Shown here: in pieces, positions 7-6,626 of the stretch
Position numbering within the stretch: position 1 is the stretch's first letter
Layout: each line of letters opens with the position of its first letter
IMG/VR virus record: IMGVR_UViG_3300015063_000002
Span: 3,200 to 67,199 of that record
Origin: a virus
Direction: 5' to 3' (one strand)
Length of the DNA: 64,000 bases
Translations under genes and position numbers: made by a program
Notes under the pieces: model-generated
The model's input: only the letters and a program-made list of their open reading frames with translations
Databases searched by the model: none
What the model was told of the DNA's origin: nothing

Positions 7-474
7 TTAGAGGTAATACTGCCGGGAAACGATACTACTGATACCTTTGGTGACATTTTTGAAAACGTCTTGATAGTTTTCTTTAGGCATATTTGTTAGC
101 ACCAAACCGATAATAACTACAAGGATCAGTAAGCTAATGATTACAGCGAGAGGGATATTCCAGGCGGTGGGGTTAGCAGATTTCTCAAAAGGTGGGAGCG
201 GTATCACACTAGATTTTTCGTTAGCCCATTCCCCAGCCAGCCACTTTTGGGCCTGTGCCAGAGCAGGGTTGTTTGAGTCAATTGTAGCAGCCTGTCTAAT
301 AAGTTGGTCAGCTTCATTCAAATCAGGATTGGTAAAAGCCGCCCACAAAAGAAGGTTAAAGTCATTAGGGTTACTACTCAAAAGGGATTGAAGGAGTGAG
401 TAAGCTGCTTCTTTTTGATCATTTTGGGCCAGGCCAATCGCTTTATTGAATTTTGCTAGATCAGATGCGTTCAT
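7..474 (-). CDS. TPR-like helical N-terminus plus one TM helix; paralog of 39329-40201
   Basis: First ~85 aa align by eye with the 39329 protein (NP[NT]D[FV]NLLLW[AT]AFT...NPALAQA[QK][KG]WL); hydrophobic stretch IPLAVIISLLILVVIIGLVL. Confidence 0.65.
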   Translation of the reverse strand: MNASDLAKFNKAIGLAQNDQKEAAYSLLQSLLSSNPNDFNLLLWAAFTNPDLNEADQLIRQAATIDSNNPALAQAQKWLAGEWANEKSSVIPLPPFEKSANPTAWNIPLAVIISLLILVVIIGLVLTNMPKENYQDVFKNVTKGISSIVSRQYYL

Positions 475-496: not shown

Positions 497-534
497 TGTG
501 AGAGTGGATAAGTTTTACATTACCCACTCTCACA
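497..534 (-). terminator. Hairpin at the 3' end of GGY-NN array B
   Basis: TGTGAGAGTGG (497-507) / CCACTCTCACA (524-534) perfect 11-bp inverted repeat, extendable with one mismatch. Confidence 0.7.
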
Positions 535-632
535 CCCACGTCTTGTCTTGCCTTGCCAAACCTCACCCGGCCTTACCTCACCTGACCATGCCGCGCCAGA
601 CCTCACCATCCCAGTCCGCACCCGGCCTTGCC
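533..632 (-). ncRNA. GGY-NN pentamer array B (putative VIPR-like guide RNA)
   Basis: Minus strand, 20 phased units: GGC-AA GGC-CG GGT-GC GGA-CT GGG-AT GGT-GA GGT-CT GGC-GC GGC-AT GGT-CA GGT-GA GGT-AA GGC-CG GGT-GA GGT-TT GGC-AA GGC-AA GAC-AA GAC-GT GGG-TG; 15/20 GGY; intergenic; ends in a hairpin. Confidence 0.8.
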
Positions 633-743
633 TGATTGTTCGCCACCCACTCCTTTAGAGAGCAAACGGCGGTGTAAAGTAACTTGTGGAAATTGCCGCG
701 AGATGACGGGATTCCGTCCAAAATGTTGGTATAATGACATTCC

Positions 744-776
744 GATACTAACCGGGGCGTAATCCCGGTTAGTATC
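744..776. terminator. Hairpin downstream of the XRE repressor gene
   Basis: GATACTAACCGGG / CCCGGTTAGTATC perfect 13-bp stem directly after the stop codon. Confidence 0.7.
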
Positions 777-1012
777 TAAACCGCCAGTGGGCTAAGAGTC
801 TTCTGGCGGTCTTCTTTTGGGTTCACCGCCTCAAACTCTGACAATTCAGAGAAATCAACGCCAAAGAACTTGGAAAGCTTAATCAGTGTGGTTGCATACG
901 CCTTACCGCCGCCCTCTAACCTAGTAATGGTAGCAGAACCAATTCCACTTTGAATTGCTAGACCACGCACCGATAAACCTCGATTCACCCTTAATTCTTT
1001 TATCTTGTTCAA
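776..1012 (-). CDS. XRE-family HTH repressor
   Basis: IKELRVNRGLSVRGLAIQSGIGSATITRLEGG is a cro/CI-type HTH; divergent from the SWIM operon. Confidence 0.9.
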   Translation of the reverse strand: MNKIKELRVNRGLSVRGLAIQSGIGSATITRLEGGGKAYATTLIKLSKFFGVDFSELSEFEAVNPKEDRQKTLSPLAV

Positions 1013-1080
1013 GCCGTAACCTCTTTCTCAAGCTGAACTTTGTAAATCCTACGATTTAACTATATCACACTTGATAACAC

Positions 1081-1108
1081 TTGACAAGATTTAATATGCT
1101 GGTATAAT
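1081..1108 (+). promoter_or_regulatory. Consensus sigma70 promoter of the SWIM/HNH/integrase operon
   Basis: TTGACA (1081-1086), 16 nt, TG-N-TATAAT (1103-1108); ACACTTGA direct repeats overlap the -35 (possible operators). Confidence 0.8.
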
Positions 1109-2257: not shown

Positions 2258-2814
2258 ACATCGAGATTTCCATCCCCTTCCACAAAGGCGACTACCCGGT
2301 TAACGATAACTACCAAGCCGAAGTTCTGGAAAGCATGGTCAAGTTTGCGGCTGAGTGCTACAACAGTGACTTCCTCTGGAAACCGACACTAGCGGCTATG
2401 AAGAGTGATTTTCCTGGCCTGGAAGTGATACGCGAGTCTCCTTTAGACGAGCTGCTTTTTCTCTTATTCAACGAAGGTCATTATTTTGACGACGACTTCG
2501 AGCAGGGCCTTCGTATGTACTCGAAGAAAGCAAATGCTAATTTGAGTGAACTGGAGTTGAAGGCGGCAAGGTATCTTTACGAAGTTGGCCTCAAACTTTC
2601 CAGGGAGTTTGCCGAGAAGTACAAGAACTACTTTGAGCAAGCTCTGGATGAAGACCTTCATGCCCCTAATTACGCCTTTATAAAAGCTTGTGAGAAGGCT
2701 GGTTTACCCATTACCAATTGGGCTAAATGGTGGCCTGAAGAGTTCGCCTACCTGTATTACTATGTCTACGACGATAAAGATGAGAAACCGGGTGATAGCC
2801 ATGAGAAGGTTTAA
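2251..2814 (+). CDS. Hypothetical protein
   Basis: 187-aa ORF overlapping both neighbours in the operon. Confidence 0.6.
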   Translation: MVDIEISIPFHKGDYPVNDNYQAEVLESMVKFAAECYNSDFLWKPTLAAMKSDFPGLEVIRESPLDELLFLLFNEGHYFDDDFEQGLRMYSKKANANLSELELKAARYLYEVGLKLSREFAEKYKNYFEQALDEDLHAPNYAFIKACEKAGLPITNWAKWWPEEFAYLYYYVYDDKDEKPGDSHEKV

Positions 2815-4201
2815 TACTTTGCGCTCGGATTTAGTAGAGGAGGGTCGATCCCGGCCCTCACGCCCGGCACACACCCGGCAAGACCCCATGACAGTAGGAA
2901 ATTTGGTAAGTGCTTACCATCGTTACGGTTGGTCGGTCGGTAAGCGGGATGCAACTCAACAAATCCACAAATACGCGCTGGCTCATTTTGAAGAGTTCGC
3001 CGGTGCTGATAGGTTGGTTAACGAAATTGACGCACAGCTTTTGGATGATTATAGGTATAGTCTCGTCCAAAAAGGTTTGAAAACCGTGTCAGTCAATAGC
3101 TATCTTCGGAGCTTACGCGCCCTTTTTCGTTGGGCCAACCGTTCCGGGCGGGCTACGGTAGATTATCAATTCCCTACTATTGAGTTTATGCGGCGCGGCC
3201 CTATCACTCCGAAAGAGGTGGTTAATCAAGAAGAGTTTGGGATGCTGCTTGAGGCTACTAACCGCGAGTCTACTACGCTTTTACAGGTCAGGGCTAGAGC
3301 AATCCTTATGATACTTTATGACACTGGTTTACGAGCAAGTGAGCTTTGCGGAGCGCAGTGGGGTGATTTAGAACATTCCATTATTGATGGTCAGGCAAGT
3401 CACACTCTAAGAATCCAAAGTGCAAAAGGTGGCGATCCTCGTATTTTGCCTTTACATCCAAACACCTGGGCGACTATTAGAGAGTATCGTGCGGAACTAT
3501 TGAGGCCGCATGGCAGGGGCTATCGTAAACGTGGTAACGATCCAACGTGGTTATTTGTGTCTAATCGAGATATGAGTGAGCCACTAACTGTATCCGGCCT
3601 ACGCCGCCTTTGCGAACGTTTGGGGCGGCATTGCCAGATACACGCTAACCCTCACAAGTTTCGTCATAGTTTTGCTTCCTCCTGGATCAATCAAACAGAG
3701 GGGCAAGAGATAGAAACATTGATCGAAATTGCCGGATGGAAAGACCGCAAAATGTTGGAGGTCTATGGTCATTACCAAACCCCAAGTCTAGTTAGGGCTG
3801 CTCGGCGTAACAGCCCCATCAACAATCTTACAGGTTTTAAGAAGTCATCCAACACTCTGCCCGATCTGTTGGCTGAGGATGGTATACAAGACCCTAAAGA
3901 ACGCAAGGCTCAAGAGGTATTGCGACGTTTTAAGTATAAATATCATGCTGACGTGGAGTCGGGGTGCTGGGTTTGGATTGGTGGCGTCTCGCTTAAATAT
4001 AAACAACCACTTTTTATGGTGGAACGACACATGATCCGGGCAGCTAGATGGATATACGAGCATGATATAGGCCCAATCCCACCATCTTATGTTGTGTGGC
4101 AAACTTGCCAGAATCGTCTTTGTGTCAACCCGGCTCACTTGGTAGCGGGTTCAGTAGCCGAACTGCAAGCCCTTCGGCGTACAGCACTTTCCGTAGAATG
4201 A
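2801..4201 (+). CDS. Tyrosine recombinase with C-terminal HNH-like domain
   Basis: GLRASE, HKFRH, GW...Y catalytic set; C-terminal GCWVWIG...TCQNRLCVNPAHL; start taken at MRRFN (2801) rather than the upstream GTG. Confidence 0.85.
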   Translation: MRRFNTLRSDLVEEGRSRPSRPAHTRQDPMTVGNLVSAYHRYGWSVGKRDATQQIHKYALAHFEEFAGADRLVNEIDAQLLDDYRYSLVQKGLKTVSVNSYLRSLRALFRWANRSGRATVDYQFPTIEFMRRGPITPKEVVNQEEFGMLLEATNRESTTLLQVRARAILMILYDTGLRASELCGAQWGDLEHSIIDGQASHTLRIQSAKGGDPRILPLHPNTWATIREYRAELLRPHGRGYRKRGNDPTWLFVSNRDMSEPLTVSGLRRLCERLGRHCQIHANPHKFRHSFASSWINQTEGQEIETLIEIAGWKDRKMLEVYGHYQTPSLVRAARRNSPINNLTGFKKSSNTLPDLLAEDGIQDPKERKAQEVLRRFKYKYHADVESGCWVWIGGVSLKYKQPLFMVERHMIRAARWIYEHDIGPIPPSYVVWQTCQNRLCVNPAHLVAGSVAELQALRRTALSVE

Positions 4202-4606: not shown

Positions 4607-5200
4607 ATGGCAACTAACAACATCTTACAGGCGAAAGTGACAATCAAGGGTACTCGCGGTCTACTCTGGCATCACTTCGGCCCTGATGCTATCCCTTTAG
4701 AGAAGCAGGAACGAACGGGGGTAGCTGGTAACGATCCCGAAGAGTGGCGTAAAACTGTTCTCATGTTACCCGATACCCGTCAGCTTTACCTCAAACCCAC
4801 CTACGTTTTCGGCACTCTTCGGGATGGAGCTAAGTACACTGCCCGCAAGCGCGGTACACTACAACCCTTCCTGGCTGCCACGTTACAGGTGATGGATGAG
4901 TTGATTTTGATCGATGACAGGTTTGTCCCGGTTGAGCCACTACCGACCGAACCAACTAAGCTTGTTTATCTGGACATTCAATCGGTTAGAAATCCGGCTA
5001 CTAAGGCCCGTAACGTCCGTTATCGGATCGCCGCCGCACCCGGCTGGACTTGTAGTTTTAACCTTATGTGGGATAAAACCATCGTCAGCCGGGGCGAGAT
5101 GGAGGCCGCAACGATTGATGCGGGCCGGTTTTGCGGCCTGGGGGACGGTCGTTCGGTCGGCTATGGTCGCTTCGGGATTGAAGCTTTCGAGGTTGAGTAA
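4607..5200 (+). CDS. Stand-alone RAMP / Cas7-like protein (putative Vipr-like)
   Basis: N-terminal strand KVTIKGTRGLLWH, LYLKPTYVFGTLRDGAK, and C-terminal glycine-rich loop AGRFCGLGDGRSVGYGRF typical of RAMPs; RBS AAGGAG; no other cas gene in the window. Confidence 0.8.
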   Translation: MATNNILQAKVTIKGTRGLLWHHFGPDAIPLEKQERTGVAGNDPEEWRKTVLMLPDTRQLYLKPTYVFGTLRDGAKYTARKRGTLQPFLAATLQVMDELILIDDRFVPVEPLPTEPTKLVYLDIQSVRNPATKARNVRYRIAAAPGWTCSFNLMWDKTIVSRGEMEAATIDAGRFCGLGDGRSVGYGRFGIEAFEVE

Positions 5201-5244
5201 TACGGGGCTATTGATTTGTTAAAGTGCCTGGGGAAGGAGGCTCA

Positions 5245-5559
5245 ATGCCAAGAAAAAGACAACCTAGAGAGATTTGGCGAGAAACCCGTAAAAAGGTTTT
5301 AGCCAGAGATGATTACAAATGTGTGAGGTGTAGGTCGCCGGTAGCTGTTGGGACTGCTCACATTGACCACATCCGTAGCGGCAAACTCGGTACTAACGAA
5401 ATGTCCAACCTTAGAACCCTTTGCCGCTTATGTCACGCTACCAGAGCCGATCACCGACATCAAGGACTGAGTGCAAAGCTAGTCCGTGAAGGTTTGCTTC
5501 CTCCTAACTGGCGAGAGCTAGTTTGGGAGGATAGCGAACTATCTAACATGGGTAGTTAG
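5245..5559 (+). CDS. Small HNH endonuclease between the RAMP gene and array A
   Basis: CVRC...AHIDHIRSGKLGTNEMSNLRTLCRLCHATR; RBS AAGGAGG before ATG 5245. Confidence 0.85.
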   Translation: MPRKRQPREIWRETRKKVLARDDYKCVRCRSPVAVGTAHIDHIRSGKLGTNEMSNLRTLCRLCHATRADHRHQGLSAKLVREGLLPPNWRELVWEDSELSNMGS

Positions 5560-5576: not shown

Positions 5577-5666
5577 GGTTTGTTTTGGTCAGGCGTGTCA
5601 TGGTGGGGCGAGGTGCGGTGCGTTCAGGTCAGGCGTGGTACGGCTAGATAAGATAAGATATGGTAA
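5577..5666 (+). ncRNA. GGY-NN pentamer array A (putative VIPR-like guide RNA)
   Basis: 18 phased units: GGT-TT GTT-TT GGT-CA GGC-GT GTC-AT GGT-GG GGC-GA GGT-GC GGT-GC GTT-CA GGT-CA GGC-GT GGT-AC GGC-TA GAT-AA GAT-AA GAT-AT GGT-AA; all triplets fit GNY, 12/18 GGY. Confidence 0.85.
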
Positions 5667-5694
5667 CGCTACTACTAACAAGTGGTAGCGTTTT
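5665..5694 (+). terminator. Intrinsic terminator closing array A
   Basis: AACGCTACTAC-taacaa-GTGGTAGCGTT followed by TT. Confidence 0.75.
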
Positions 5695-5757
5695 AAATTG
5701 CTTAGAAAAATGTGGCATTTAAACACAGACCGAACCAGTTTACTTTAGCAAAAGTAA

Positions 5758-6272: not shown

Positions 6273-6626
6273 TTAGCCCTGCCCGATGGCACCGGCGTTT
6301 TGCATTTTCAAATCTTGCTCTTTAATTTTTAGCTCGATAGAGATGATCTTCTGACAGAGCTTGGTCTTTAGGTCGATCAGTTGGATAGCTTGCATTAGAC
6401 CGGCGGGTTGTTCGAGGAAACCACCGGCACGGGGTAGTATCCTTTTGTCCGACGCCAACCACACGTCAAATACTTCTTGTTCGAGCGGGGTGTGAGCGGG
6501 TAGTCGGGCTAGTTCGATATGCAGGAGGGCAAGCTGGGCCGGTGGATCGAGGGCTTCCAGACCCTGCCACCACGACGATCCTTTACTGTTCCCCTTTTCG
6601 CGTGCGTGGAAAGGTGGCCGGGCCAA
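6273..6626 (-). CDS. Probable tail assembly chaperone extension (T-like ORF)
   Basis: Overlaps the 3' end of 6583-7281 in another frame; LPRAGGFLEQPAGLM resembles chaperone-associated motifs. Confidence 0.45.
   Translation of the reverse strand: MARPPFHAREKGNSKGSSWWQGLEALDPPAQLALLHIELARLPAHTPLEQEVFDVWLASDKRILPRAGGFLEQPAGLMQAIQLIDLKTKLCQKIISIELKIKEQDLKMQNAGAIGQG

Follow-up and report, generated by a model that had tools for sequence, protein, structure and literature searches.

A GGY/NN array behind a phage repressor gene as a probable second guide of a single VIPR system

Introduction

In a 64,000-nt stretch of viral DNA (the window, part of a contig of 78,404 bp), a tract of phased five-nucleotide units lies behind a repressor gene, on the strand opposite to the gene of a small RAMP protein 4 kb away. 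Does this tract, here called array B, encode a guide RNA, and if so, which protein would it serve?

VIPR, first reported in 2026, is a CRISPR-like system for the RNA-guided targeting of DNA, in which Vipr, a small stand-alone RAMP, binds vrRNAs composed of 9-16 GGY/NN pentamers and, at the 3' end, a constant tail; pairing with double-stranded DNA is through the NN dinucleotides, and every third target base is skipped (bioRxiv 10.64898/2026.04.26.720920). According to cryo-EM, one Vipr protomer is bound per repeat, and H17, R138, D177, W178 and R179 grip GGY (10.64898/2026.04.26.720927). Some vrRNAs, termed solo, are encoded away from any vipr gene, and those of satellites and VIPR-null phages hijack the Vipr of another element (10.64898/2026.10.15.759431). 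The discovery preprint also reports an HNH-domain Vap (fig. [quoted passage not shown] The discovery is very recent, and its gapped-code RNA-guided DNA recognition has been proposed as ancestral to CRISPR effectors.

Results

Array B and its register

Array B occupies positions 632→533 of the minus strand and consists of 20 phased 5-nt units. Read from 632, units 1-10 are GGCAA GGCCG GGTGC GGACT GGGAT GGTGA GGTCT GGCGC GGCAT GGTCA, and units 11-20, ending at 533, are GGTGA GGTAA GGCCG GGTGA GGTTT GGCAA GGCAA GACAA GACGT GGGTG. Fifteen units are GGY and the other five GGA, GGG, GAC, GAC and GGG, with GG in 17/20 units. The initial annotation, made from the letters alone, had described exactly these 20 minus-strand units with 15 GGY, and the sequence agrees with it in full. 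Sequence and phasing statistics place the variable guide part at 558..632 (minus), with 15 GGY/NN units, among them GGA as unit 4 and GGG as unit 5, and the NN series AA CG GC CT AT GA CT GC AT CA GA AA CG GA TT. Tandem 5-nt GGY+NN units, at least 4-9 of them in unbroken register, were taken as the mark of a vrRNA, and array B has them.

A period-5 scan of the entire 78,404-bp contig found phased GG in 15/15 consecutive units at array B; other dinucleotides reached at most 8/15 at this period, and GG/CC at periods of 3, 4, 6 and 7 at most 11. The contig-wide scan for further runs, which had been proposed earlier, returned array A (5587-5661, plus) as the sole other array, and the NN series of the two arrays differ, as had been claimed. 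The gene of vrRNA A extends over 5577..5695 (plus), with units from 5577/5587 to 5646, a handle at 5647-5663 (GATAA GATAA GATAT GG) and a terminator-like hairpin at 5665-5692; some of its units are degenerate (GTCAT, GTTCA). Neither Tandem Repeats Finder nor Rfam 15 detects either array, and the former found no CRISPR-type array with a 25-40-nt period in the window. A purine-rich G/A tract (…GGAAGGGGAAGAGGAGGTGAGGGAGGGAGGAGGGAGGGGA) at G000:C1:2997-3056 of the contig, 143-202 bases upstream of the window start, obtained a partial score in the period-5 GG scan and has no GGY/NN grammar.

Three overlapping ORFs (453-635 on the plus strand, 60 aa, and 578-721 and 603-740 on the minus strand) were considered as a coding explanation of the tract; none has a family match, and with a 5-nt period codon constraint cannot be the source of the pattern.

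A Vipr homologue encoded by the same contig

The presumed partner of both arrays is encoded at 4607..5200 (plus), the only vipr copy in the contig. Its product, a 197-aa stand-alone RAMP, matched no Pfam family. When a profile of this protein and 37 homologues was compared with the PDB, the only match was 36pp, "SUSP1 Vipr protein", at E 6e-8 and over almost the full length. The AlphaFold (AF2) model of the protein (pLDDT 85, pTM 0.81) matched Csm3/Cas7 subunits in a Foldseek search of the PDB (Csm3 E 2e-9, TM about 0.55), and among the AFDB clusters it matched each of the five accessions given as Vipr seeds in the discovery paper: X1U2U4 (E 6.6e-13, TM 0.70/0.77), A0A0F9A1L0, A0A661D0E2, A0A1F4YLN4 and A0A2D6XG06. 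Four of these seeds ranked above all but one CRISPR-annotated RAMP, and A0A2D6XG06 was at rank 17.

The protein was also aligned to the SUSP1-type Vipr of an Ounavirinae phage, whose locus carries three GGYNN arrays with a common tail. Four of the five GGY-contact residues are kept, H17, R138, D177 and R179 corresponding to H22, R140, D180 and R182, which are invariant or near-invariant across the clade; W178 aligns to G181. By sequence profile and predicted fold, the 4607-5200 protein is a Vipr homologue. The earlier reading of this gene as a RAMP is borne out by the 36pp match and the Csm3/Cas7 fold.

The HNH-associated clade

An accessory, vap-like gene for an HNH nuclease (5224..5559, plus; Pfam HNH E 2.3e-8) begins 24 nt after vipr. 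To place this pair, 83 related loci were surveyed in viral contigs and in genomes of Chloroflexota, Cyanobacteriota, Acidobacteriota, Armatimonadota, Bacillota, Chlamydiota and others; individual loci are denoted below by L numbers. Of the 83, 81 had an HNH homologue behind vipr, at a distance of less than 450 nt, and almost all carried same-strand GGYNN arrays between vipr and HNH or just after HNH. This co-occurrence argues that vipr, HNH and the vrRNA(s) form a module with HNH as its accessory gene. This Vipr family is large, with 1,777 matches at 90% clustering and 234 representatives at 50%.

In 101 arrays taken from the 83 vipr loci, the unit composition was G.96, G.95 and C/T.88, followed by a near-even NN. 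The last units are A-rich and are followed by GG and usually by a hairpin; AA was found at units -2 to -4 in 27 of the 101 arrays, compared with 8% in the 5' parts. No orthologous copy of array B itself was found, and the pattern of conserved GGY and hypervariable NN therefore holds at the level of the clade only. The first 6.3 kb gave no blastn match to GenBank phages; HIP1 is absent, and the nearest Vipr homologues lie in small MAG contigs of several phyla.

The 3' handle of array B

The terminal units of array B are A-rich and make up a 3' handle at 534..557 (minus; GGCAA GGCAA GACAA GACGT GGGT), the final bases of which overlap the start of a hairpin at 498..533 (minus). RNA folding gives this hairpin a 14-bp stem with one G-U pair and an 8-nt loop, and the 60-nt tail folds at -27 kcal/mol. 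The initial annotation had stated that the array ends in its own hairpin, which is what lies directly behind it. The hairpin is without a T-run; the RBS of the next gene follows about 20 nt further on, with the ATG at 474. Analogous hairpins stand behind arrays of L127, L129, L130, L131, L133, L154, L158, L163 and L287.

The same ending was found on guides located beside vipr in close relatives. Array B ends with GGTTT GGCAA GGCAA GACAA GACGT GG and then the hairpin; vrRNA2 of L287, beside vipr-HNH and with a Vipr 81% identical, ends with GGTTT GGCAA GACAA GACGT GG and a hairpin-terminator; and the first, vipr-adjacent guide of L124 (Vipr 69% identical) ends with GGCAA GACAA GACGA GG. All three share the motif GGCAA GACAA GACG(T/A) GG. 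A scan of IMG/VR with the handle pattern returned only the already known relative. The handle and hairpin of array A resemble those of the third guide of L288.

These handles bear on whose protein array B serves. A solo or decoy vrRNA, redirecting or saturating the VIPR complex of a competitor, would fit the documented hijacking of a foreign Vipr by solo vrRNAs, and array B does lie 4 kb from vipr, on the other strand and in another transcription unit, with a hairpin that differs in sequence from that of array A. The contig, however, has its own vipr, and the handle of array B is that of vipr-adjacent guides in the nearest relatives, where A-type and B-type handles co-occur in single tandem arrays, so that one protein evidently accepts both. 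Moreover, array B matches the vipr genes and vrRNAs of the 83 related loci at background level only. We consider a decoy function improbable. The label "orphan", under which array B had been introduced, is likewise overstated, since vipr lies only 4 kb off on this very contig. The remainder of that proposal, a RAMP protein served in trans by several guides, matches the published VIPR architecture and is in line with the Vipr homologue, the handle and the recurring distal guides described below.

Genomic setting and probable transcription

The gene immediately 5' of array B, likewise on the minus strand (776..1012), encodes an XRE/Cro-CI-type HTH regulator, which matches Pfam HTH_3 (E 1.4e-7) and HTH_26 (E 3.1e-7) and the PHROG "transcriptional repressor" (E 1e-8). 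The gene downstream of the array occupies 7-474 (minus). The array had been placed between the XRE hairpin and a TPR-TM gene; the position is correct, but a Pfam search of the 7-474 product gave no confirmation of TPR. The sequence between the XRE stop and the array is a leader at 633..775 (minus), in which a consensus scan called no sigma-70-like promoter or terminator; the hairpin 3' of the XRE gene, at 747-773, is without a T-run. The motif directly before the first unit is GAACAATCA in array B and CAACAATAAC in array A.

The same kind of scan identified a strong divergent promoter pair at 1059..1108, on both strands. The minus-strand promoter, TTGTCA-17-TATAGT (1087→1059), belongs to the XRE gene; the plus-strand promoter, TTGACA-16-TATAAT (1081-1108), is a 12/12 match with an extended TG and faces the side of the SWIM gene (1225-1668, divergent from the XRE gene) and vipr. 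These back-to-back sites between the XRE and SWIM genes resemble a phage lysis-lysogeny switch. Since no promoter was called between the XRE gene and array B, the hairpins are T-less and the next RBS is close, we infer that array B is co-transcribed with the repressor and processed; the array probably sits inside the repressor operon and is not a free-standing gene. Transcription of vrRNA B would start at the XRE promoter (1087-1059) and read through the T-less hairpin, after which the guide would be cut out, and vrRNA B would thus be present in the lysogen. Among public sequencing runs, the stretch was contained in one soil DNA metagenome, probably its source, and in no RNA run.

Many arrays of the clade lie within the vipr-HNH operon and reach up to the start codon of HNH, and a guide behind a small HTH gene on the strand opposite to vipr recurs in at least three related phages. 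In L130, an array of 19 units stands behind a Cro/C1 HTH gene, on the minus strand and divergent from vipr and the gene of a SWIM-finger protein, a synteny equal to that of the window with its XRE gene and its SWIM gene (the latter at 1225-1668). In L131 and L133 (the latter identical with L160), minus-strand arrays stand behind an HTH_17 gene, at 1.3-2 kb upstream of vipr. The closest XRE-bearing relatives, L288 and L290, have no array behind the XRE gene. In L133, the distal array (3631-3796, minus) and the vipr-adjacent array (6330-6394, plus) possess a common leader, TCTTAAGTTTTCGA, with the pattern (A/T)TCTTAAG(T/G)TTTT(C/T)GA just before the first GG, which may be a shared promoter or processing signal.

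That guides repeatedly sit in a repressor operon suggests lysogeny-linked expression. Tentatively, and with somewhat less than even confidence, we propose that in this HNH-type phage clade one guide has moved to the repressor operon and is made constitutively by the prophage with the repressor, the other guides remaining beside vipr-HNH, so that guides are divided between the lysogenic and the lytic state. If this division is true, the lysogen would gain a sequence-specific, nuclease-backed exclusion of one particular rival.

Two further features of the region concern its nuclease genes. A single ORF at 2690-4201 (+) joins a tyrosine integrase (Phage_integrase E 3e-21) to an HNH_3 domain at the C-terminus, and two more HNH genes, 1847-2257 and 5224-5559, lie within 4 kb.

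Search for the target of array B

[quoted passage not shown] If the skipped base is put at the wobble position, the reading is a stop-free peptide, [KN]RAL[IM][DE]LA[IM][HQ][DE][KN]R[DE][FL]. Within the 78-kb contig, the best self-target of array B reached 21/30, equal to the shuffled background (mean 19.2, maximum 21); the VIPR paper likewise reports the absence of a self-target for real guides. A natural target was defined by an NN match of at least 80% under the 1-nt-skip rule, and no convincing one was found for array B across the searches of IMG/VR, metagenomes, genomes and related loci. This negative result is weak, because targets that lack an exact 8- or 9-unit run are invisible to seeded searches.

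In IMG/VR, exact 8-unit seeds from units 1-8, 8-15, 7-14 and 4-11 gave 65, 16, 12 and 38 matches, respectively, which when extended did not exceed 23/30. In metagenome contigs, units 3-13 gave no match, and units 6-14 gave 31 matches in otherwise unrelated proteins, the best of which scored 25/30. It lies in an identical TetR-like gene (…FYQYFADKKDLYLYLVDLAMQEKRDF…) on two small contigs, Ga0105090_10139444 (L366) and Ga0105102_10062220 (L369). About 0.4 matches of this grade are expected by chance among 31 seeded matches, and the TetR-like match is probably due to chance, though it is the best candidate seen. The full 15-unit pattern with at most 3 mismatches was absent from all five Vipr-host genomes, from all 401 genomes of a phylum sample around an Oscillochloris genome (Chloroflexota) and from all 401 of a sample around a Waterburya MAG (Cyanobacteriota), 807 genomes altogether. 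In approximately 3 Mb of related loci the matches of array B were at background, and a database of this small size did not separate skips of 0, 1 and 2. The target search for array A covered its own contig and the related loci.

In keeping with the negative target search, array B might be an unused relic, a piece of a tandem vrRNA array that recombination has displaced within a mosaic prophage region. Two or three tandem guides follow the HNH gene in relatives and one does so in this contig, and the region is indeed mosaic, with extra HNH genes and an integrase-HNH fusion. Array B, however, is more regular than array A, with GG in 15/15 units, an intact handle and the 14-bp hairpin set against the degenerate units of the latter, and L130, L131 and L133 likewise have an array behind an HTH gene, which makes a displaced, unused copy very unlikely.

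It is scarcely credible that array B is not a guide at all but a G-rich structural element (a two-tetrad G2 quadruplex or an R-loop former), a sponge for a ring-shaped RNA-binding protein of the TRAP/CsrA type or a repeat within the 60-aa ORF: GGN3 repeats could in principle form G2 quadruplexes, and TRAP, too, reads triplets, with a spacing of 2-3 nt, yet the third base is constrained to a pyrimidine, the arrays are tied to vipr-HNH in 81/83 loci, and the published structures directly account for the recognition of GGY. TRAP- or CsrA-like sponges, G-quadruplexes, a Rho or R-loop element and a cos/pac signal had all been considered for such arrays, and were dropped because the arrays are tied to a Vipr gene and their grammar is the published one.

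Discussion

Taken with the Vipr homologue, the clade-typical handle and the recurring distal guides, the tract at 533-632 (-) together with the hairpin at 498-533 is very likely the gene of vrRNA B, a second guide for the one VIPR system of this phage. As a kind of system VIPR is already known; what array B adds is a second, distal vrRNA.

A mechanism can be outlined from the published structures. The transcript of array B would load in trans onto the resident Vipr, the protomers of which would polymerise along it, one per 5-nt unit, burying GGY and leaving NN exposed. The terminal units GGCAA GGCAA GACAA GACGT GG and the hairpin would serve as the constant 3' handle. The exposed NN would then pair with double-stranded DNA bearing the same dinucleotides with one skipped base between them, and vrRNA B would direct binding to a competing phage or mobile element absent from the databases searched, with the HNH partner probably cutting.

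The closest characterised system is that of the Escherichia phage SUSP1 (type II; 36pp). The RAMP of both is stand-alone, measures about 20 kDa and has H, R, D and R at four of the GGY-contact positions, both use GGY/NN pentamer guides with a structured 3' tail, several per protein and one of them away from the main array, and both are phage-borne and without a self-target. The differences are considerable. The 4607 protein is only about 30% identical to SUSP1-type Vipr, and this in the C-terminal half only; the accessory is an HNH nuclease, whereas that of SUSP1 is the DNA-binding vap1; the tail is an A-rich handle with a simple hairpin instead of a pseudoknot; and one guide lies in the repressor operon, on the opposite strand. 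The arrays are also longer, with 17-22 units (17-20 in array B) compared with 9-16 in the characterised VIPR clades.

In its combination of Vipr, an HNH-type accessory and one or few vrRNAs, the system is similar to the nuclease-associated VIPR types III-V. Unlike types III and V, which are found in defence islands, it and its near relatives reside in phage or prophage DNA beside integrase and tail genes. Array B also shares with the solo vrRNAs of F5 satellites and VIPR-null SUSP1-like phages its location away from the vipr-vap operon, the GGYNN grammar and a family-typical tail; the elements carrying solo vrRNAs are without vipr, whereas here vipr is 4 kb off and the handle is that of the resident clade. 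The RAMP fold, the one protomer per fixed length of guide and the periodic base flipping are features in common with the Cas7/Csm3 filaments of Class 1 CRISPR. In contrast to those systems, the window has no repeat-spacer array, and cas1/cas2 are absent from the neighbouring genes (HTH, SWIM, HNH, integrase); each 5-nt unit offers only 2 bases for pairing, and the guide is hard-wired, not acquired.

The locus adds a soil-phage member to a large and mostly unstudied clade of Vipr with HNH, which has about 1,800 homologues and spans Chloroflexota, Cyanobacteriota, Acidobacteriota, Bacillota and Chlamydiota. The new point is a modest one, namely that one system can have its guides distributed over the vipr operon and the repressor operon. 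Should this split reflect lysogenic versus lytic expression, it would show how temperate phages deploy VIPR.

Several loci of this kind can occur in one genome. Four separate vipr-HNH loci were found in one Chloroflexales MAG (L138, L139, L150 and L155) and four in Oscillochloris sp. ZM17-4 (L146, L154, L158 and L163), which suggests that a host may contain several VIPR-armed prophages, with scope for cross-targeting.

Arrays of the same grammar are widespread among viruses. A search of IMG/VR with the pattern (GGYNN)11GGY returned at least 120 viral contigs with at least 196 arrays (L001-L120), variable in NN. Among the matches listed, contigs with 3-8 arrays are frequent, and an RBS and ATG often follow the array directly; a few matches (L095, L099 and L118) are plain simple repeats. 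Some arrays, namely L022:5408-5520, L087:1673-1811, L103:2997-3120 (-) and minus-strand arrays of L017, are followed by a tRNA-like T-arm and acceptor (GGTTCGACCCCGG…). ARAGORN called an odd 93-nt "tRNA-Pro" overlapping the end of the L087 array and an unassignable tRNA in L103; the tRNA-like tails of these four contigs may represent a different type of vrRNA tail.
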